From Bacteroidia bacterium (GTDB lineage Bacteria > Bacteroidota > Bacteroidia > NS11-12g > UBA955), in contig JBIISM010000006.1 of the NCBI GenBank assembly GCA_044341025.1, positions 7,581 to 71,580 on the forward strand: a stretch of 64,000 nt of DNA, in the 5' to 3' direction. Below, piece after piece: positions 12,323 through 34,464 of the stretch. Below the pieces are notes generated by a model, which worked only from the letters and a program-made list of their open reading frames with translations, did no database searches and had not been told where the DNA came from. Within the stretch, counting starts at the first letter, position 1. Each line of letters starts with the position of its first letter. Both the position numbers and the translations under genes were made by a program.

Positions 12323-13105
12323 TTATTTTGAGATGTAGCCTTTCATGATACCACGATCAGAAGCCTTAATAAATTGAAGGATTTCGTCCCTTTCAGGGGT
12401 AGCAGGCATATTGGCTTCAATGTGGGAGATGGCCTTGTTGTTGTTTAGACCACGCACATAAAGCGTTCTGTATATTTCTTGAATTTCAGCTATTTTATCG
12501 GGAGTGAAAGCGCGGCGTCTTAGGCCAATTGAATTTACGCCCTCGTAACTAAGTGGTTCACGTGCTGCCTTTGTATAAGGGGGTACATCTTTACGCACCA
12601 AGCTGCCACCACTGATCATGGCATGGCGCCCGATGTGAACAAATTGGTGAACAAGAGTTGCCCCGCCAAGTATTGCAGATTCGCCAATAACGACATGGCC
12701 TGCCACTTGGGTGCTGTTTGCAAGAATGACATGGTCGCCAATAACACAATCGTGCGCTACGTGGCTGTATGCCATAATTAAACAGTTTGCACCAATTTCG
12801 GTTTGTCCTCTGTCTTTAGTGCCACGGTTAATGGTAGCACATTCGCGAATGGTGGTATTGTCGCCAATAATGGTAAGAGAATCTTCGCCATCAAATTTTA
12901 AATCTTGTGGGATTGCGGAGATAATAGCACCCGGAAATATTTTTACATTTTTTCCGATTCGGGCACCTTCAAAAATGGTTACACCTGAACCTATCCAGGT
13001 ACCTTCACCAATTTCTACATTTTTATGAATGGTAACGAAAGGATCGATTACCACATTTTCTGCAACCTTCGATTGCGGATGAACATAAGCTAGGGGTTGA
13101 ATCAT
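12323..13105 (-). CDS. lpxA: Acyl-ACP--UDP-N-acetylglucosamine O-acyltransferase
   Basis: The N-terminus MIQPLAYVHPQSKVAENVVIDPFVTI is typical of LpxA. Hexapeptide repeats are present and the length is 260 aa. Confidence 0.9.
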   Translation of the reverse strand: MIQPLAYVHPQSKVAENVVIDPFVTIHKNVEIGEGTWIGSGVTIFEGARIGKNVKIFPGAIISAIPQDLKFDGEDSLTIIGDNTTIRECATINRGTKDRGQTEIGANCLIMAYSHVAHDCVIGDHVILANSTQVAGHVVIGESAILGGATLVHQFVHIGRHAMISGGSLVRKDVPPYTKAAREPLSYEGVNSIGLRRRAFTPDKIAEIQEIYRTLYVRGLNNNKAISHIEANMPATPERDEILQFIKASDRGIMKGYISK

Positions 13106-25589: not shown

Positions 25590-25863
25590 ATGTTGTTGTT
25601 TATTCCAAATGCCTTTAGTCCAAACAATGACCAGTTAAACGACTTTTTTAATCCGAGTGGACGAATAAGCGTTAAACAATACCATCTCTCTATTTACAAC
25701 CGTTGGGCGAATTGTTGTTTGAGAGCAATGACCACAAGCGCGCCTGGGATGGCAATTATAACAATGCCATGTGCCCGCAAGACGTTTACACATATTGGAT
25801 AAACTTAGTAGATGTCTTTGGCAAACGGAAAACCTATAGAGGTACTTTTACCTTAGTGCATTA
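25590..25863 (+). pseudogene. Orphan remnant of a T9SS type B (gliding motility-associated) C-terminal domain, frameshifted
   Basis: The first frame reads FIPNAFSPNNDQLNDFF...LSIYNRW. After a 1-nt deletion near 25700 the adjacent frame continues GELLFESNDHKRAWDGNYNN...YTYWINLVDVFGKRKTYRGTFTLVH*. Together these are a complete ~90-aa type B CTD. No protein body lies upstream, because the dehydrogenase gene ends 30 nt earlier. Confidence 0.6.
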
Positions 25864-25917
25864 AAACTGCTAAAAAAAGTAGCTTTAAAAACCATAATTT
25901 AACAATAAATTTGCACT

Positions 25918-26700: not shown

Positions 26701-27894
26701 TTGAAAAAAAACATATCAATTATTGGCGGAGGTTCAGCTGCCATAGCCTTTGCAGCCCATATTGACACTAAAAAGTTTGATGTCGTTTTATACGAAAAAA
26801 ACAAAAGCCCATCCCGAAAGTTTTTAGTGGCTGGCGATGGCGGATTTAACCTCACCCACGGCCTTAGCGTGCAGGACATGCTTAAACAATACGAACCTCT
26901 GGGTTTTTTAGATGAGGCATTGCTTCAATTTAGCAACGATGATTTTAGACTTTGGCTTAAAGAAATAGGCATTGAAACCTATGTAGGCAGCAGCGGAAGG
27001 GTATTCCCTATAAAATCCATTAAGCCAATTGAAGTTTTACAAGCCATTTTAAAAGTGCTTAAAAACACAGGTGTACAAATACAAACTGCTAAACATTGGA
27101 CTGGATGGAATGTAGATAATACCTTGCAACTAAGTAGTTCGGATTCATTAAAATCTGATATTGTAGTCTTTGCCCTTGGAGGAGCTAGCTGGAAAGTAAC
27201 TGGCTCAGATGGCACATGGTTGTCCTTATTTAAATCCAAAAACATCCCATGCATAGAATTTAAAGCAGCCAACTGTGCATTTGAAATTCAATGGCCTAAT
27301 GATTTTATAACCCATCACGCAGGTAAAGCCTTAAAAAACATTCATCTTAGTTCAGGTTTAAAAACTTGCCAAGGTGAACTAAGCGTTACTTCGTTTGGTC
27401 TTGAAGGCAATGCTATTTACCCGCTAAGCTCCAATATACAATCAGACCTTGCATCCATTGGACACGCTCAAATTTTTATCGATTTTAAACCAATGTTTTC
27501 AGAAGAAGCATTGTTAATTAAGCTTGAAAAATCAAAAGCGAAAAGCATCAATGACAAATTAAAAATAGATTTGGCCTTGAACAATACAGCCATACAAATA
27601 CTAAAAAACCATTTAAGTAAGGAAGCCTATTCTAACTATGTTTCTTTGTCTCAAGCTATAAAACATTTACCTTTAAAAATAACTGCAGCAGCGCCCATCG
27701 ACGAAGCCATTTCTACCACAGGCGGCATTGATTTAGAAGCTATTGATGAGAACTTTCAACTAAAACAAATGCCTCAGCATTATTGCATAGGAGAAATGTT
27801 GGATTGGAATGCGCCAACTGGCGGCTACTTGTTACAAGCTTGTTTTAGCATGGGGGTAAAACTAGCGCGACATTTGAACGGTCAAGCCTCTTAA
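26701..27894 (+). CDS. HI0933/BaiN-like NAD(P)/FAD-dependent flavoprotein
   Basis: The N-terminus KKNISIIGGGSAAIAFAAH...FLVAGDGGFNLTH is typical of the TIGR00275/TIGR03862 family. The start appears to be a TTG. Confidence 0.75.
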   Translation: MKKNISIIGGGSAAIAFAAHIDTKKFDVVLYEKNKSPSRKFLVAGDGGFNLTHGLSVQDMLKQYEPLGFLDEALLQFSNDDFRLWLKEIGIETYVGSSGRVFPIKSIKPIEVLQAILKVLKNTGVQIQTAKHWTGWNVDNTLQLSSSDSLKSDIVVFALGGASWKVTGSDGTWLSLFKSKNIPCIEFKAANCAFEIQWPNDFITHHAGKALKNIHLSSGLKTCQGELSVTSFGLEGNAIYPLSSNIQSDLASIGHAQIFIDFKPMFSEEALLIKLEKSKAKSINDKLKIDLALNNTAIQILKNHLSKEAYSNYVSLSQAIKHLPLKITAAAPIDEAISTTGGIDLEAIDENFQLKQMPQHYCIGEMLDWNAPTGGYLLQACFSMGVKLARHLNGQAS

Positions 27895-28062
27895 GACAGC
27901 ATATTGTAAGCACCCAAACTTAAAACATCCATTACGGTATTGCCAATTGAATCAGTGGAAAAGATGGATTCAAAAAATGGATTGGTCATATGATTTACCT
28001 TATCTATAAATATATTCACAAACATATCATTTAAATGAGATATGAAATAATTATTTATTGTC

Positions 28063-28674
28063 TTAATAATTGTATATCCGTTCTGCGACAAAAGTATCTC
28101 TTAAAATACCAAATGCTACGGTATAAAAATCTCCTCTACCCCCTCTTTCTTTCTCTTCATAAACGAGAATTTTAAAATACCTCTTAGACTTTGGGGTTAA
28201 AAACCAATTAAAGCCAATTACGTCATTACGATCAGCAAAAAGATTATAAACCCATTTATCAAGATCGTTAAATGGCAATTCATGAATCAATTCATATTCC
28301 TTCATTAAGACACGATTAGAGTCAGGACAATTTAAAAAAATTTTATTCGCATATAAGGAATCAAACTTTTTTAACCAGTTGGTATCTTTATTGACATATC
28401 CAGGTTTTCCTTGAAAGTACAATGCTCTATCCAATATCCCTACATAATATATACCATTACTATCTAAGACGGATTCTAAATTAGAACCTACGTTATAAAG
28501 ATCTCCAATTCTGCCAGGACGCATATAAGCAAATGAATCAAACTTTGTTGGGTGTTTTTTTGAAAAAAAATTGATTTTTGAAGCATATCCATTCATTGTA
28601 AATATTCCAATCACTAAGTATTGAAATATTTTAATCATTGTTGATTGCTTTAATATTTTATAATTCAACCTCAT
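28063..28674 (-). CDS. Hypothetical secreted protein (low-GC islet)
   Basis: 203-aa ORF at about 30-33% GC. It has an N-terminal hydrophobic segment (MIKIFQYLVIGIFTMNGYAS) and no recognisable domain. Confidence 0.4.
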   Translation of the reverse strand: MRLNYKILKQSTMIKIFQYLVIGIFTMNGYASKINFFSKKHPTKFDSFAYMRPGRIGDLYNVGSNLESVLDSNGIYYVGILDRALYFQGKPGYVNKDTNWLKKFDSLYANKIFLNCPDSNRVLMKEYELIHELPFNDLDKWVYNLFADRNDVIGFNWFLTPKSKRYFKILVYEEKERGGRGDFYTVAFGILRDTFVAERIYNY

Positions 28675-28681
28675 ATATTTA

Positions 28682-29554
28682 TTAGAAAGCTATGACATTT
28701 GCTGCTGCATAAAAGTCCCCATTCGGACATAATCGCAAAGAAACACCTACAAAGAAATTATTAGGATCAAAAACCTCACTCAATAAAATGACTCTATGTG
28801 GCAATGATCCATACCAAGCAATAACAGCACGTTCAGCAATTGATTCATAAGAATTAATACCGTAAAATTTGTAATAACTTCTACGCATAAGATAAGCGAC
28901 TTCGGTATAGCGTAGATTTTCCCAGCAGTTCAGTTTATATGGACTGGGTAATTCACAATTTATAAAAGATGAATCTAATAGAATTAAATGTTCCTTAAAT
29001 ATGCATTTAACATTTTGTTTAAGGGCTTCATCTGTTTCCCAAGGAAATTCTGGATGATGTAAATATCCTTTTTGATACATTATTAGCGTATTTCTTGAAG
29101 AGATATATTTTGAAACAGTTTTGGAATATTTATACGGCCTTAATCCAAGTTTCACTCTAAATGCATTGATTTTTATGTATAAAATTGAATCCATTAAAAC
29201 TTGGTTAAAATGATAGAAATCAATCCAATGACAACTACTTGAATCAAACAATTTTATCAATCCAATTTGAATACTATCCTTTCTTGTCAATGGTTTGTAA
29301 GGATTGGGGGATGAAAACACTATAGCCTCATTAGACATTTTTTTAAGATCCGATTCAAATGGTTTAATGGCTATTTTCATACACTTTAAAACGGCATTAT
29401 AACTACTACAACCCATAGCATCAAATAATCCAGTTGGCCTAAATGCAAAAGTATATAATACACTATCAGTAGATTTTGTAATAGTTCCATCATATTGAGC
29501 CTTTAGAAAAAATGGCGACAAATTCAAAACAATATAAATGACCAATCTTTTCAT
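28682..29554 (-). CDS. Secreted protein with a C-terminal CAP/SCP/PR-1-like (YkwD-like) domain
   Basis: Signal peptide MKRLVIYIVLNLSPFFLKAQ. The C-terminal AERAVIAWYGSLPHRVILLSEVFDPNNFFVGVSL...GDFYAAANV follows the bacterial CAP pattern (A..AW.NSPGHR.NIL...F...GVG....YW). GC content is low. Confidence 0.45.
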   Translation of the reverse strand: MKRLVIYIVLNLSPFFLKAQYDGTITKSTDSVLYTFAFRPTGLFDAMGCSSYNAVLKCMKIAIKPFESDLKKMSNEAIVFSSPNPYKPLTRKDSIQIGLIKLFDSSSCHWIDFYHFNQVLMDSILYIKINAFRVKLGLRPYKYSKTVSKYISSRNTLIMYQKGYLHHPEFPWETDEALKQNVKCIFKEHLILLDSSFINCELPSPYKLNCWENLRYTEVAYLMRRSYYKFYGINSYESIAERAVIAWYGSLPHRVILLSEVFDPNNFFVGVSLRLCPNGDFYAAANVIAF

Positions 29555-29714
29555 AACAACATGCTTTAATTGTCAACGTAAAACATTTAAAAATATTACA
29601 ACAATTCCCACACAATATTTAATCCGTTTGATCGTTAGAAATTTAATTGCCTATGACTTAAGCCTTACCTTTTATCGTTTTAATCTTTTTAAACTAATAA
29701 ACAGGAGGTAAATT

Positions 29715-31478
29715 ATGTTGTATGTAATGTTAATGGCCAGCTTAGCCTTTGAATCAAGCCAAAGCAATCAGTCAAAACCATCCATTGACTGGGAACAAAC
29801 CAACTACTTCAACAAATTTGGCAAAATCAAAAAACAGGTATTGATTTTATATCCCAACAAGCAATACAGCTATTACCAGATTGGGGTTAACAATAAATTG
29901 CATTTCGATACTGGAACATATAAGTATAAAAGCTTTGCGCACAAACTCCAATTCAACAGTGTACAAAGCCAGTCGAGTTTTAATCCGATGACACAACAAC
30001 CCATTAAAGTGAATGGCGATGAAGTCTATCTATCGAAAGACAAAATAAGTTTTAAGCACTCAAACATATCCGACATCACTTCTGTATTATCTATATTTTC
30101 ATCACTCAAACGCATCGAGATAAAAAACAAACCATTGGATCGCGTCAGCCTTAAAAGAGGATATCAATTACAAAACAGCACAGATTTAAGCCCATATAAA
30201 CAGTCGATTAAAACACCTGAGAGCAATGCCCTAGTATACCAAAAAGGACAACACATTGCTGACAGTCTCTATGCCATCGAATTAAAAAAAGGAAAAGACA
30301 AGAGCAATCAAGCAGTTTATGATTTAGCTAGACAACTGACTAAACAGGCAAGCACTGATTCCGCTAAATTAAGGTTGTTATGCGATTGGATGACCCTCAA
30401 CTTTGAATACGACTTGGAAGGACCTGTTAATCCTTCGGAGTTAATAAAAGTCAAAGCCACCAGATGTGAAGGTTACGCCAATTTTATCTTGGCGTTATGC
30501 AAAGAGCTCAATATTCCTAACATTAAAGTAATTGGCACTGCCGATAATGGCAGTTTAAAACGCTATTCATTCAATGAAATATCAGGCGGACACGCATGGA
30601 ATTTGGTTAAAATACAAGGCGCTTGGAGACCATTAGACGTCACTTGGTTAGACCCCACTTGGCCCAAAGATTATAAAAAAGACAACCGTGTGTATGGCAA
30701 TGAGCACTATTTCAATCCTGATCTAGAACAATTGAGCTTAACACATATGCCAGATATTGCAGCATTGGCCTTGACCAATTTTAGTTCTTTGGGTCAAAAA
30801 GCATTTTGTGAAAACCCTGTCATAGAACAAAAGGGCTATGCCATTCAGTATGTTGGATCAAACAGCAACCGGATTAAAACCCAAAACCCTAGCATTCAAT
30901 TTGAGTTTTATGCAACAGAAGAAATGGAAGTGACCATATCCAGAGGCAAACATGAGTCAACCTATACCATCCGTTTAAAGTCAGGCATTAATACCATCCT
31001 CATGCCCACACCAGCATTACTGTCAGAATATACTTTTAAATGTGGCGGTTTGAAAGCTCAGTTTTACATAAATCCAAGTAAAGGCAATTTAAGTGCATTA
31101 AACGCAGCCCTAAAAGAGGTTAGATCATACAATTGGGCTTATCAGATAGAATTTTATGAATACATGATCAAATTGATTCAAACCAAAAACATTCAAATCA
31201 GATATACCAATGACAGCAATGGTCAAATCACCAGTATGGCCAAAAACATTATTGAAACATATGATGGGCTTTGTCCTGTAGGTGCTTGGTATCTCAAATG
31301 GGATGCTAAAAAGGCAGGCGATTCTCCTGTATTTATGCGTTATTACTTCACAGATCAACGCATTAATGGTAAACGCCTATTTGTTGAATGTAAAGTGGAC
31401 TGTAAATTCAGTGAGACCAAAATGCTCAATCCAAAAAAGTTTACTTGTAGTAATTGGGGCATTGGGTTGGACTATTGA
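29715..31478 (+). CDS. Transglutaminase-like cysteine protease superfamily protein
   Basis: A Cys-His-Asp core is present in RCEGYANFILALCKELNIP...GGHAWNLVKIQGAWRPLDVTW. Unusually for Bacteroidota, a canonical AGGAGGT Shine-Dalgarno sits 6 nt upstream of the ATG (29703-29709). Confidence 0.65.
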   Translation: MLYVMLMASLAFESSQSNQSKPSIDWEQTNYFNKFGKIKKQVLILYPNKQYSYYQIGVNNKLHFDTGTYKYKSFAHKLQFNSVQSQSSFNPMTQQPIKVNGDEVYLSKDKISFKHSNISDITSVLSIFSSLKRIEIKNKPLDRVSLKRGYQLQNSTDLSPYKQSIKTPESNALVYQKGQHIADSLYAIELKKGKDKSNQAVYDLARQLTKQASTDSAKLRLLCDWMTLNFEYDLEGPVNPSELIKVKATRCEGYANFILALCKELNIPNIKVIGTADNGSLKRYSFNEISGGHAWNLVKIQGAWRPLDVTWLDPTWPKDYKKDNRVYGNEHYFNPDLEQLSLTHMPDIAALALTNFSSLGQKAFCENPVIEQKGYAIQYVGSNSNRIKTQNPSIQFEFYATEEMEVTISRGKHESTYTIRLKSGINTILMPTPALLSEYTFKCGGLKAQFYINPSKGNLSALNAALKEVRSYNWAYQIEFYEYMIKLIQTKNIQIRYTNDSNGQITSMAKNIIETYDGLCPVGAWYLKWDAKKAGDSPVFMRYYFTDQRINGKRLFVECKVDCKFSETKMLNPKKFTCSNWGIGLDY

Positions 31479-31533
31479 TACAGAGTGTTTATGATAGCAT
31501 TATGCATTAGGTTATTTCCCTTAATTTTACCAC

Positions 31534-31784
31534 ATGAAGTCTTACATCATAGCTGGTGAAGCCCGTGGTGATTTGCACGGTGCCAATTGATGAAACAAAT
31601 CAAATTATCTGACCCAAATGCAGAGATGCGCTTTTGGGGTGGCAATTTGATGTTAAAAGAATCGTCGGCATTGGTGCTTCTTTCGCGGTTTCGCTCTGTG
31701 CGGTTGTCAAAACCTAAATCATTTTTGGCCATTTGTCTTGAATGGTTGCTCATAATGGTTTTGTGCTTTGCTGCAAACAATTAG
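31534..31784 (+). pseudogene. lpxB: Remnant of lipid-A-disaccharide synthase gene lpxB (N-terminal ~80 codons, frameshifted and truncated)
   Basis: Frame 1 reads MKSYIIAGEARGDLHGAN then TGA. After a 1-nt deletion (AATTTG->AATTG at ~31586) the next frame reads MKQIKLSDPNAEMRFWGGNLM, matching the LpxB N-terminus (IAGEASGDLHGSNLMKALK..DPEAEFRFWGGDLM). Similarity decays after that. No ORF follows for 400 nt. Confidence 0.6.
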
Positions 31785-32201
31785 ATTTGTGATGCATTGA
31801 TGCGAAAGTAGTAAATTATCTTTGACTCTATTGCAATTGAAGGTCGCAATAGAATATTTTTTATCAATGTCCTTGACATCCATTTTTTTGTTTTTTTAAA
31901 AAAAATAGATAAATTCGTAAATTATTAATTACAAAATATTGCATCGCTATTTATTGCCTTCGGTAAATTGAAAACAATACTGAAATTATAAAATTGGGAT
32001 AGGACATTAAATTAAACAAAGAACAACTTTATAAATATGGGTAAATTTGGATTTTCATTTTCTTGGAAAAGGTTATTAGGTATAACGGCATTTAAAAATT
32101 CCATAGCCAGAAAGACAGGCATACCAACAACAAAAGGCGGCATTGAGCGTAAAGTTGGCAGGACAATTATCAAAGCAATATTTGGTAAATAATATTTTGC
32201 G

Positions 32202-32537
32202 ATGAGAAAAAACAAGCACCTGTCCGGTGATTCAGGATCACCACTACGCACTTTAGTACTCTTTTTATTGTCGTCCTGCTTGGGTGGTTTGCTGTTTAGT
32301 ATACTCGCGTTAAGGGCTAAAAGAAAACAAAAAACAGTATTTTGGTGGTTTTTACTTTCCTTAATATTTATTGCAATATTTGGTTTTTTGTCCTATACAT
32401 TGGTGTTAACATCAAGCCCTACAAAAGATTCCAGTTACTATTATTTAGGCATGGTAAGTTTGGTTTCTAATTCAATTGCATTGATCATATTAATCGCTAC
32501 GTTATTTTCAAAAAATTCAAACGATAAGGTCAAATAG
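32202..32537 (+). CDS. Possible small membrane protein (3 predicted TM helices); may instead be a spurious ORF in decayed sequence
   Basis: 111-aa ORF with hydrophobic stretches. It lies in the AT-rich region between the lpxB remnant and the glmS 3' end. Confidence 0.25.
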   Translation: MRKNKHLSGDSGSPLRTLVLFLLSSCLGGLLFSILALRAKRKQKTVFWWFLLSLIFIAIFGFLSYTLVLTSSPTKDSSYYYLGMVSLVSNSIALIILIATLFSKNSNDKVK

Positions 32538-32619
32538 AGAATTGCGTTAAGAATTAATTATAAATCATTCGAATCAAGCCCTCCCCGATCATAAAAGCTT
32601 ATGTCATCCGTGTTCGGGA

Positions 32620-34464
32620 CTACTCCACCGTAACCGACTTCGCCAAGTTTCTCGGCTGATCGACATTACAGCCTCTCAAAACTGCAATGTGGTAACTTAA
32701 CAATTGCAAAGGAATGGTAGACAATAAAGGCGTCAAAGCTTCCTCGGTGTCAGGTATTTCAATAACGTGGTCGGCCATTGCGCGCACTTGGGTATCGCCT
32801 TCAGTAACGATTGCAATAATTTTGCCTTTACGGGCTTTAACCTCTTGGATATTGCTCATTACTTTTTCGTACATGCCGCGTTTTGGTGCAATTACCACCA
32901 CTGGCATTTCTTCGTCAATCAAAGCAATAGGACCGTGCTTCATTTCTGCGGCAGGATACCCTTCAGCGTGTATGTAAGAGATTTCTTTTAGTTTTAATGC
33001 ACCTTCTAAAGCCACAGGGAAATTAACCCCTCTGCCTAGGTATAAGAAATTGCGGGCATCTTTGTAAATAGCCGCTATTTTCATTACCTCGTCATTGGTT
33101 TTTAAGCAACGTTCAACCAATTGAGGAATGGCTTCTAATTCGCTTAACGTTGTTCTTAAGCGTTCTTGAGAAATTACACCTCTAATCTGGGCAACAGACA
33201 AGGCCATCAAGGTTAAAACAGAAACTTGAGCCGTAAAAGCTTTGGTTGATGCTACCCCAATTTCTGGACCTGCGTGTGTGTATGCCCCAGCATGGCTCAT
33301 ACGCGGGATGGAAGAACCAACCACATTGCAAACCCCAAATACCGTAGCGCCTTTTTCTTTTGCCAATTCCATAGCGGCAAGGGTATCTGCAGTTTCACCA
33401 CTTTGTGAAATGGCAATCACCAAATCATCTGGATAGATAATTGGATTGCGGTATCTAAACTCAGAAGCGTACTCAACTTCAACAGGAATACGCGCATACT
33501 CTTCAAACAAATACTCCCCCACCAAAGCGGCATGCCAACTGGTTCCACAACCGATTAAAATAAGGCGTTTAACATTGCGCAATTTGTCTTCGTATTCATG
33601 TATGCTGCGCATGACAAATTTGCCTTGAATAGAATCAATACGACCGCGGATACTATCCTGGATAGACTTAGGTTGCTCGTAAATCTCCTTCAACATAAAG
33701 TGGGGATACCCACCCTTTTCAATTTGTTCTAAATTAATTTCAAGTTTTTGAATAAATGGGGTCTTGGTCACATTATCGATGGTCTTAACGCTCAAATTAC
33801 CATCTTTAATAATTGCGATTTCACCATCATTTAAATAAAATACATCACGCGTGTATTCAACTATTGGCGTTGCATCACTTGCCATAAAATACTCCCCTGG
33901 CTGATCGCCAATACCAACCACCAAAGGACTGCCTTTGCGAGCTGCTATAAGCTTAGCTGGTTCATTCTTAACCAAGATTACAATAGCATATGCGCCGATA
34001 ACTTGATTAAGGGCCAAGCGCACAGATTCGTCAATTGAAATATTCTCGTTCAGTTGAATATCTTCAATCAAATGAATCAATACTTCTGTATCGGTATCAC
34101 TTTCAAAAATGTGACCACGCTGCTGCAATTCTGCTTTGATGGTAGCGTAATTTTCAATGATTCCATTATGAATAACTGCTAAATTTTTAGATTGGGACAA
34201 ATGTGGATGGGCATTGGCATTGTTAGGCTCTCCATGGGTTGCCCAACGTGTATGACCCATACCAATGTTGCCAGACACGTCTTTTCCCTCAACAGATTCT
34301 TCTAAATCAGCAACTTTGCCTTTGGTTTTATAGATGTTTAATTCATCGTTGTGAATTAAAGCGACACCGGCACTATCATAACCTCTGTATTCAAGTCTTT
34401 TAAGACCTTTTACGATAATAGGATAAGCTTCTTTGGGTCCAATATAAGATACGATTCCACACAT
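32620..34464 (-). CDS. glmS: Glutamine--fructose-6-phosphate aminotransferase (isomerising)
   Basis: The N-terminus MCGIVSYIGPKEAYPIIVKGLKRLEYRGYDSAGVA shows the Ntn Cys2. Two SIS domains follow. 614 aa. Confidence 0.95.
   Translation of the reverse strand: MCGIVSYIGPKEAYPIIVKGLKRLEYRGYDSAGVALIHNDELNIYKTKGKVADLEESVEGKDVSGNIGMGHTRWATHGEPNNANAHPHLSQSKNLAVIHNGIIENYATIKAELQQRGHIFESDTDTEVLIHLIEDIQLNENISIDESVRLALNQVIGAYAIVILVKNEPAKLIAARKGSPLVVGIGDQPGEYFMASDATPIVEYTRDVFYLNDGEIAIIKDGNLSVKTIDNVTKTPFIQKLEINLEQIEKGGYPHFMLKEIYEQPKSIQDSIRGRIDSIQGKFVMRSIHEYEDKLRNVKRLILIGCGTSWHAALVGEYLFEEYARIPVEVEYASEFRYRNPIIYPDDLVIAISQSGETADTLAAMELAKEKGATVFGVCNVVGSSIPRMSHAGAYTHAGPEIGVASTKAFTAQVSVLTLMALSVAQIRGVISQERLRTTLSELEAIPQLVERCLKTNDEVMKIAAIYKDARNFLYLGRGVNFPVALEGALKLKEISYIHAEGYPAAEMKHGPIALIDEEMPVVVIAPKRGMYEKVMSNIQEVKARKGKIIAIVTEGDTQVRAMADHVIEIPDTEEALTPLLSTIPLQLLSYHIAVLRGCNVDQPRNLAKSVTVE

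Follow-up and report, generated by a model that had tools for sequence, protein, structure and literature searches.

The stretch of DNA analysed here, referred to throughout as the window, comprises 64,000 nucleotides from a freshwater Bacteroidia bacterium (contig JBIISM010000006.1 of assembly GCA_044341025.1), and the element of interest within it is an accessory islet of 3.84 kb lying between a flavoprotein gene and glmS. The islet holds four items: orf203, a CAP/SCP-like gene, a divergently transcribed transglutaminase-like gene that is preceded by a strong Shine-Dalgarno (SD) sequence, and a frameshifted stub of 43 codons from the 5' end of lpxB (Table 1). An earlier interpretation made from the DNA alone (the sequence-only reading) had taken this for acquired DNA whose arrival destroyed a resident lpxB. 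Its three open reading frames (ORFs) exist as placed, and the acquisition itself is borne out by our analysis, with conspecific contigs cleanly lacking the islet and its sequence being far closer to the thiolase-lpxB locus of another lineage than the housekeeping genes of the two lineages known to have that locus are to one another. The extent given to the islet needs revision, however, as it had been drawn to position 32619 and said to end in an AT-rich stretch free of ORFs. The islet ends at approximately 31805, and 31806-32619 is native backbone that holds conserved genes for proteins of 51 and 111 amino acids (aa).

Table 1. Features of the islet and of the backbone on either side of it, in window coordinates.
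Feature	Position	Strand	Basis or remark
Flavoprotein gene, TIGR03862-family (HI0933-like), left backbone flank	26701..27894	+	Pfam PF03486, E 8e-55; NCBIfam TIGR03862, 341 bits vs cut-off 243
Left junction zone	27944..27963		Homology to L100-type empty sites stops at 27943, to L081-type at 27963 (alignments, blastn)
Islet left non-coding end, 99 bp	27964..28062		Matches islet-bearing loci only; window vs L003 87% identical
orf203, small putative secreted orphan protein	28063-28674	-	Met13 start at 28638, giving 191 aa, likely
CAP/SCP-like putative secreted protein, 290 aa	28682-29554	-	PF00188, just under cut-off
Shine-Dalgarno AGGAGGT	29703-29709	+	5 nt before the transglutaminase ATG
Transglutaminase-like protein, 587 aa, Cys251-His293-Asp308	29715-31478	+	PF01841
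lpxB 5' stub, dead, ~43 codons, 1-nt deletion, stop at 31588-31590	31534-31661	+	tblastn
Islet right non-coding end, ~144 bp	31662-31805		Matches islet-bearing loci only; 81% identical to L003
Native AT-rich intergenic backbone, outside the islet	31806-32036		Aligns to empty-site contigs L100, L105, L106, L081, L093
51-aa backbone gene, conserved	32037..32192	+	98-100% identical with or without islet
111-aa membrane-protein backbone gene, conserved	32202..32537	+	In strains with and without islet
glmS, right backbone flank	32620..34464	-	SIS and GATase domains; 99.7-100% identical in conspecific contigs

The clearest evidence that this is an accessory element comes from its presence and absence among strains of one species. 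Conspecific contigs were gathered with the MscS protein encoded nearby, looking for similar as well as for identical sequences. Five independent contigs (L081/L103, L093, L100, L105 and L106) carry an empty site, in which the flavoprotein gene is followed by about 26 bp, the AT-rich intergenic stretch, the 51-aa gene and the 111-aa gene; none of the islet genes is present, and in none of the five was lpxB sequence found between the flavoprotein gene and glmS, the latter being reached by L081/L103 and L093 only. MscS is 100% identical to that of the window in L081/L103, L100, L105 and L106, and also over the last 34 residues that L093 covers, and glmS is 99.7-100% identical to that of the window in the contigs that reach it. 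The islet-bearing form is seen in the window, in L001/L102 and L002 (both identical to the window), and in L003-L005, L101 and L104, with a single JGI sample (3300042466) yielding both an empty site (L106) and an islet identical to that of the window (L002). The islet occurs in at least eight independent assemblies drawn from NCBI, JGI, ENA and Logan, and therefore is not an assembly chimera. The same gene content with similar composition in relatives had been named by the sequence-only reading as what would speak against acquired DNA; at this locus the relatives differ.

The way in which the islet is joined to the backbone looks illegitimate rather than site-specific. Backbone homology stops at one of two points in the left junction zone, depending on the type of empty site, and restarts at 31806. 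The ~26 bp held by the empty sites is missing from islet-bearing strains, and this filler is homologous in both empty-site types. We found no tRNA, Rfam match or terminal direct or inverted repeat at the islet, and Pfam and NCBIfam scans revealed no recombinase or integrase among its ORFs; a resolvase fragment was seen in L003 only, outside the islet. Comparison of the window with L003 gives a synonymous divergence (dS) of 0.09 for the islet and 0.11-0.18 for its flanks, so the islet is approximately as old as the split between these two strains and not a very recent arrival, and the divergence of its left non-coding end is consistent with neutral drift. The flavoprotein gene, which is found in islet-bearing and islet-free strains alike, exists as two alleles that are only 83% identical (dS 0.76) in strains whose MscS and glmS are >99% identical. 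Each of the two alleles is seen both with and without the islet, so that all four pairings exist, and this points to shuffling by homologous recombination.

The lpxB stub is the part of the islet that says most about its source. It encodes LpxB residues 1 to ~43, with 83-89% identity to the LpxB of a relative (tblastn), and a deletion of one nucleotide brings in a stop after codon 18; the decayed lpxB fragment reported by the sequence-only reading is therefore present. A functional LpxB (PF02684) has a full-length ORF of ~370 aa, of which the window offers only these first ~43 codons, frameshifted, and no intact lpxB lies within the 64 kb. The stub directly follows the transglutaminase-like gene, at the same short spacing that precedes intact lpxB in relatives. 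Given this match in spacer and position to the intact lpxB of relatives, and given empty sites that hold no lpxB, the stub arrived with the islet. Its decay (INDEPENDENTLY) differs between strains, with one frameshift shared by the window, L101 and L104 and a different one in L003, and the stub has thus decayed independently in different strains. By its spacing, it is the cut end of a copied segment rather than what is left of a former neighbour of glmS.

The neighbourhood from which such a segment could have been copied is found in related genomes, which were reached via contigs of the relatives of the CAP-like protein; a search of 5.8 billion proteins turned up no more than five clusters of such relatives. 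The native order there is M61 <- intact lpxB (369-370 aa) <- transglutaminase <-> CAP-like -> thiolase, as seen in L006, L007, L010, L079, L096-L098 and L116. The window matches L010 at 92.9% DNA identity from the CAP-like stop codon (28677) to codon ~43 of lpxB, with the blastn match ending at 31661. Against the L010 type (L010, L079 and L096-L099), dS is 0.15 in the transglutaminase gene, whose protein is 95% identical to that of L010, and 0.30 in the CAP-like gene. Between the only two lineages known to bear the locus, dS amounts to 1.1-2.5 for thiolase, S46, LNT, lpxB and M61. By these values the islet is closer to the L010 type than the two lineages are mutually.

Searches with LpxB and M61 were used to see how the carriers of this locus are distributed. 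Among the same 5.8 billion proteins, the relatives of the L010 type form two groups only at 60% identity or above. The L010-type group itself has 99-100% identity and 7-9 members, from ENA and one metagenome-assembled genome (MAG) at NCBI, JBEIKN01, its M61 cluster consisting of seven members with the same provenance (ENA and one NCBI MAG). The L012/L006-type group stands at 76-79% identity, and its 39-49 members derive from JGI, Logan, ENA and NCBI. The next identities beneath both groups, after a gap, are 65% for LpxB and 56% for M61. No INTERMEDIATE lineage emerged from the LpxB and M61 searches, and L080 alone fell into the range from 80% to 98% identity with the L010 type; this single intermediate, a Logan contig, shows the native order of genes, has an LpxB at 95%, and matches the islet in DNA at 86%, below the value for L010. 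No L010-type M61 or LpxB was recovered from the JGI and Logan samples in which the window-type backbone is common, and the window type co-occurs with the L012/L006 type in the series KRAE22-1, ERZ219xxxxx, JGI 3300042xxx and SRR274xxxxx. A tblastx comparison of the 21-kb L097 locus with the window found no housekeeping genes in common. Of the islet itself, orf203 and the 99-bp left and 144-bp right ends occur in islet-bearing strains only and match none of the native loci sampled, and the sampled L010-type genomes are therefore relatives of the donor, not the donor.

Taken together, this is a real but ordinary accessory islet, kept as a strain polymorphism in a freshwater Bacteroidota species, and we consider it likely that it goes back to an ordinary event of gene transfer in which a piece of a sister lineage's chromosome was inserted illegitimately. 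The host is probably not of the L010 type but of the L012 type or more distant, it presumably keeps its own intact lpxB at its native locus, and the donor would have been an L010-like species different from the host. In this scenario, the thiolase-M61 neighbourhood with its CAP-like, divergent transglutaminase-like and lpxB genes would have been copied from a donor resembling the L010 type, and the copied DNA cut inside lpxB at about codon 43, leaving a non-functional stub to be carried as a passenger. The islet also includes orf203 and, on either side, ~100-140 bp for which no match is known. Illegitimate recombination would then have joined the segment into the flavoprotein-glmS intergenic region, replacing ~26 bp, and homologous recombination in the flanks may later have shuffled the islet among strains. 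The cargo would be fast-evolving and dispensable, with the transglutaminase translated from its conserved strong SD.

Several points weigh against this account and need to be kept in mind. Both the host's intact lpxB and the type of its native locus are inferred, and the one ground for placing the host in the abundant L012-type lineage is that the two turn up together within one sample series. Neither orf203 nor the end segments have a counterpart in the sampled donor-type loci. The 7% DNA divergence from L010 means that a closer, unsampled lineage must be assumed. Finally, the polarity of gain and loss hangs on the lpxB stub and the 26-bp filler, with no independent outgroup.

Base composition was the observation that first drew attention to this locus, and here an alternative explanation survives well, namely that the low-GC patch is the intrinsic composition of two fast-evolving genes for secreted proteins under AT-biased mutation. 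The GC content of the window is 38.7%, and 28063-29554, at 30.0%, is indeed the lowest 1.5-kb stretch within it, approximately 3.8 standard deviations (sd) under the mean (1.5-kb windows, sd 2.4%). The GC content at third codon positions (GC3) of orf203 and the CAP-like gene, 0.23 and 0.22, is the lowest of 55 ORFs (mean 0.37; z -2.7 and -3.0). The sequence-only reading had given 30-33% for these two genes. The transglutaminase gene, which makes up half of the islet, is at 37.4% typical of the window in both GC and GC3; the flanks, for which 40-45% had been claimed, measure 37.9% (flavoprotein gene) and 41.4% (glmS).

Whether this low GC content marks the transfer is a separate question from whether a transfer occurred. 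The CAP-like gene has a GC content of 30-31.5% in every lineage that carries it, including the L010 and L006 types at their native locus. Because it is equally low at donor-type loci, and because the co-transferred transglutaminase gene is normal, low GC finds no support as a mark of this insertion, contrary to the earlier suggestion. The ratio of non-synonymous to synonymous divergence (dN/dS) is 0.55 for orf203 and 0.61 for the CAP-like gene, compared with 0.01-0.02 for glmS and accC, and one strain carries a nonsense allele of orf203. From these comparisons the low GC content would appear to be a long-standing property of weakly constrained genes. We therefore lean, with modest confidence, towards intrinsic composition as the explanation of the patch. 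It bears on composition alone and leaves untouched the insertion that the empty sites demonstrate, and the CAP-like gene and orf203 may have been foreign at some earlier time.

If the islet did not come from another species, the block could have been duplicated or translocated within the host genome from the host's own thiolase-side locus. In favour of this, the block and stub keep the exact gene order of the native locus, donor and host are similar in GC content, and the native locus of the host was not directly observed. Against it, the only M61 or LpxB at 80-98% identity to the L010 type is found in L080, whose DNA is less islet-like, the L010-type clusters contain nothing from samples rich in the window type, and the transglutaminase alleles of the other lineage share no more than 61-63% identity with that of the islet. 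We regard duplication without interspecies transfer as unlikely. Somewhat less likely again is that the islet was once fixed in the species and that the empty sites are secondary deletions, reflecting loss rather than gain. The similarity in dS between islet and flanks does make the islet old within the species, and both flavoprotein alleles are found with and without it, but the homologous ~26 bp filler shared by both types of empty site is hard to make by deleting an islet, and even a model of loss needs an original insertion, because the islet carries a stub from another locus. The proposal that foreign DNA inserted into or rearranged a resident lpxB beside glmS merits hardly any credence: a fragment of the 5' end of lpxB does sit at the glmS-side end of the islet in a window without an intact copy, but the five conspecific empty sites have no sequence of the gene in that interval, and in relatives intact lpxB stands immediately downstream of the transglutaminase gene at the same spacing, the stub being contiguous with the transferred block at 93% identity.

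The conserved strong SD upstream of a non-ribosomal accessory gene appears to be the one unusual feature of the islet. The sequence-only reading had remarked upon this AGGAGGT, and rightly so, as none of the 53 larger ORFs of the window has another AGGAGG in the 25 nt upstream of it. A strong SD of 7-9 bp with a spacer of 4-5 nt precedes every transglutaminase allele (L003, L006, L010, L012, L097, L101 and L104). It is kept even across alleles that are 61% identical, between which synonymous divergence is saturated and the surrounding intergenic DNA is otherwise different. With a canonical 16S 3' tail assumed, the predicted pairing is -11.7 kcal/mol for the window and -12.7 to -16.2 kcal/mol for the other alleles; on the same assumption the median for the 53 ORFs of the window is -1.2 kcal/mol and the next best value -7.4 kcal/mol. 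The divergent intergenic region between the CAP-like and transglutaminase genes contains no Bacteroidota -7 promoter motif (TAnnTTTG).

In two published reports, the ribosomes of Flavobacteriales are described as ignoring SD sequences, and genomes of this order as typically having just one gene whose SD is strong, rpsU, which is better translated by ribosomes lacking bS21 (PMC9976891; PMC13000453). The transglutaminase-like gene could conceivably be a second natural client of the SD-blind ribosomes of Bacteroidia, with its SD under purifying selection, although we hold this to be a long shot. If it were true, the transglutaminase would be translated mainly by the subpopulation of ribosomes lacking bS21, and the output of a hypervariable envelope enzyme would be coupled to ribosome composition, a behaviour so far known for rpsU only.

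The cargo of the islet is probably an envelope or extracellular module, consisting of a predicted transglutaminase-fold enzyme with a Cys-His-Asp triad and one or two small putatively secreted proteins. The call of a transglutaminase-like protein stands, with a match to PF01841 (Transglut_core) well above cut-off (E 8.7e-12, 45.7 bits vs 23). The protein also matches PDB 9crn (E 1.9e-5), with which its triad aligns, and C251, H293 and D308 do not vary among four alleles whose identity falls as low as 61%. In NCBIfam, it comes far below threshold to a family of transglutaminase-related lipoproteins (36 bits against a cut-off of 450). The assignment of its divergent neighbour to CAP/SCP is less straightforward. 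The protein of the window itself falls just short of the PF00188 cut-off (20.2 bits vs 21.1, E 1.1e-3), and taken singly its call is weak; within the family, six of six members match PF00188 at E <= 0.1 (best E 2.9e-6). Its N-terminus, MKRLVIYIVLNLSPFFLKAQ, is signal-like and typical. Searches of PDB by sequence and by profile gave nothing significant for this protein. Separately, an AlphaFold model built on an alignment of six sequences reached a pLDDT of 35 and was unusable. The 3' part of the gene, at ~28560-28960, is a local hot spot of divergence with at least three alleles, the window and L104 being 88-93% identical there and 99-100% identical over most of the remaining islet.

For the third protein, encoded by orf203, neither Pfam and NCBIfam nor PADLOC and PHROGs offer a matching family, and a set of 1.84 billion representative proteins includes just eight relatives. 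Comparison with these relatives suggests that its true start is Met13, which would give it a hydrophobic N-terminus. Its AlphaFold model (pLDDT 75) is of alpha+beta type and has no significant match in a structure search of PDB. In L101 (9544-10155) the gene contains an in-frame stop in place of Leu85, and orf203 is therefore dispensable. PADLOC and PHROGs scans of the islet proteins and of the two small backbone genes gave no matches, and scans of viral contigs with the transglutaminase and CAP-like alignments found no relatives; no link to phage or defence families was seen.

The diversity of the transglutaminase gene is also apparent at its native locus. Within one species complex, the L012/L006 lineage, this locus carries two alleles that are 63% identical (dS ~3), one at 8201-9949 in L109/L012 and the other at 8060-9820 in L006 and 2067-3818 in L116, between flanks that are 97-100% identical (dS 0.14-0.23). 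The CAP-like gene is present with one of the two alleles and missing with the other. Directly upstream of lpxB at the native locus, the transglutaminase gene thus seems to be a replaceable cassette. Such divergence within near-identical flanks is what diversifying selection on envelope or surface functions would typically produce, and alleles of ~63% identity in genomes that are otherwise 97-100% identical point to strong diversifying or frequency-dependent selection on an envelope-related module.

In the two small backbone genes beside glmS, differences between strains fall nearly all at third codon positions (seven of seven for the 51-aa gene compared with L093). The 111-aa protein has no Pfam or NCBIfam family above any cut-off, a transporter family of NCBIfam matching only far below threshold. 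More broadly, the interval from the glutamate dehydrogenase (GDH) gene to glmS is a hot spot of structural variation. At 25590-25864 the window retains only the last ~92 codons, a CHU_C domain, of a longer gene. In L100 and L101 a full RCC1/PKD/CHU_C gene of 1296-1298 aa lies between the glutamate dehydrogenase gene and MscS, and L100 1111-4935 is missing from the window, a clean deletion of 3.8 kb. In L003 (6182-7520) the resolvase fragment and ORFs of 49 and 150 aa replace the 51-aa/111-aa pair upstream of glmS, and in L100 (8100-16021) a PKD/Por_Secre_tail gene, DUF6291, GmrSD and a methylase of type I restriction-modification come after the pair. In the more distant relatives L083-L086 the contexts are rearranged and yielded no usable outgroup for the insertion site. 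One of these, L084, has at 13011-13082, adjoining the flavoprotein gene, a fragment of 24 residues that matches the C-terminus of glmS, and this fragment may be another passenger stub.

These findings have some bearing on how similar loci are interpreted. The scrap of lpxB is a footprint of a copied neighbourhood and not evidence that an essential lipid A gene has been lost, and passenger fragments of this kind can be used to find out from which donors uncultured freshwater bacteria received chromosomal DNA. Low GC content may serve poorly as a marker of transfer, since in the present case half of what was transferred is normal in composition and the low-GC gene is equally low in the presumed donor.

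Small genomic islets, or flexible genomic islands, are strain-variable segments found at fixed chromosomal positions in aquatic bacteria. The islet studied here resembles them in its presence and absence among near-identical strains, in its location within a structurally variable region and in its fast-evolving cargo of secreted or surface type. It differs from them in being a copied chromosomal neighbourhood of a sister lineage rather than a dedicated mobile element, with no integrase, tRNA target or direct repeats. Naturally transformable bacteria can integrate foreign chromosomal DNA after uptake by illegitimate recombination or by homology-facilitated illegitimate recombination. The ~26 bp target deletion, the lack of a target duplication and the truncated passenger gene at one end are all features of the illegitimate process; unlike the homology-facilitated form, no homologous anchor was found between the donor fragment and the insertion site, and no phage relatives were found.

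The proteins and their expression signal can be placed in the same manner. The transglutaminase-like protein shares with the bacterial Transglut_core (PF01841) cysteine proteases its above-cut-off match and the retained Cys-His-Asp triad; it departs from them in having ~200 N-terminal and ~280 C-terminal residues without a known domain, and its predicted reaction could be that of a protease, a transglutaminase or an amidase. The CAP-like family resembles CAP/SCP/PR-1 proteins (PF00188, YkwD-like) in that the C-terminal half fits the profile in all six members and carries the motif W..S.PHR..LL....F...GVS, and differs in the score of the window protein just under the cut-off and in an N-terminal region of ~120 aa without a family. 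The closest parallel for the SD is rpsU (bS21) of Flavobacteriia. Whilst the transglutaminase-like gene is not a ribosomal protein gene, and its SD in the window, with the 16S 3' tail assumed, is weaker than the < -13 kcal/mol criterion that PMC9976891 gives for rpsU, the two are alike in possessing a strong, conserved SD, here with predicted pairing of -11.7 to -16.2 kcal/mol, within a class whose ribosomes normally ignore such sequences (PMC9976891; PMC13000453).

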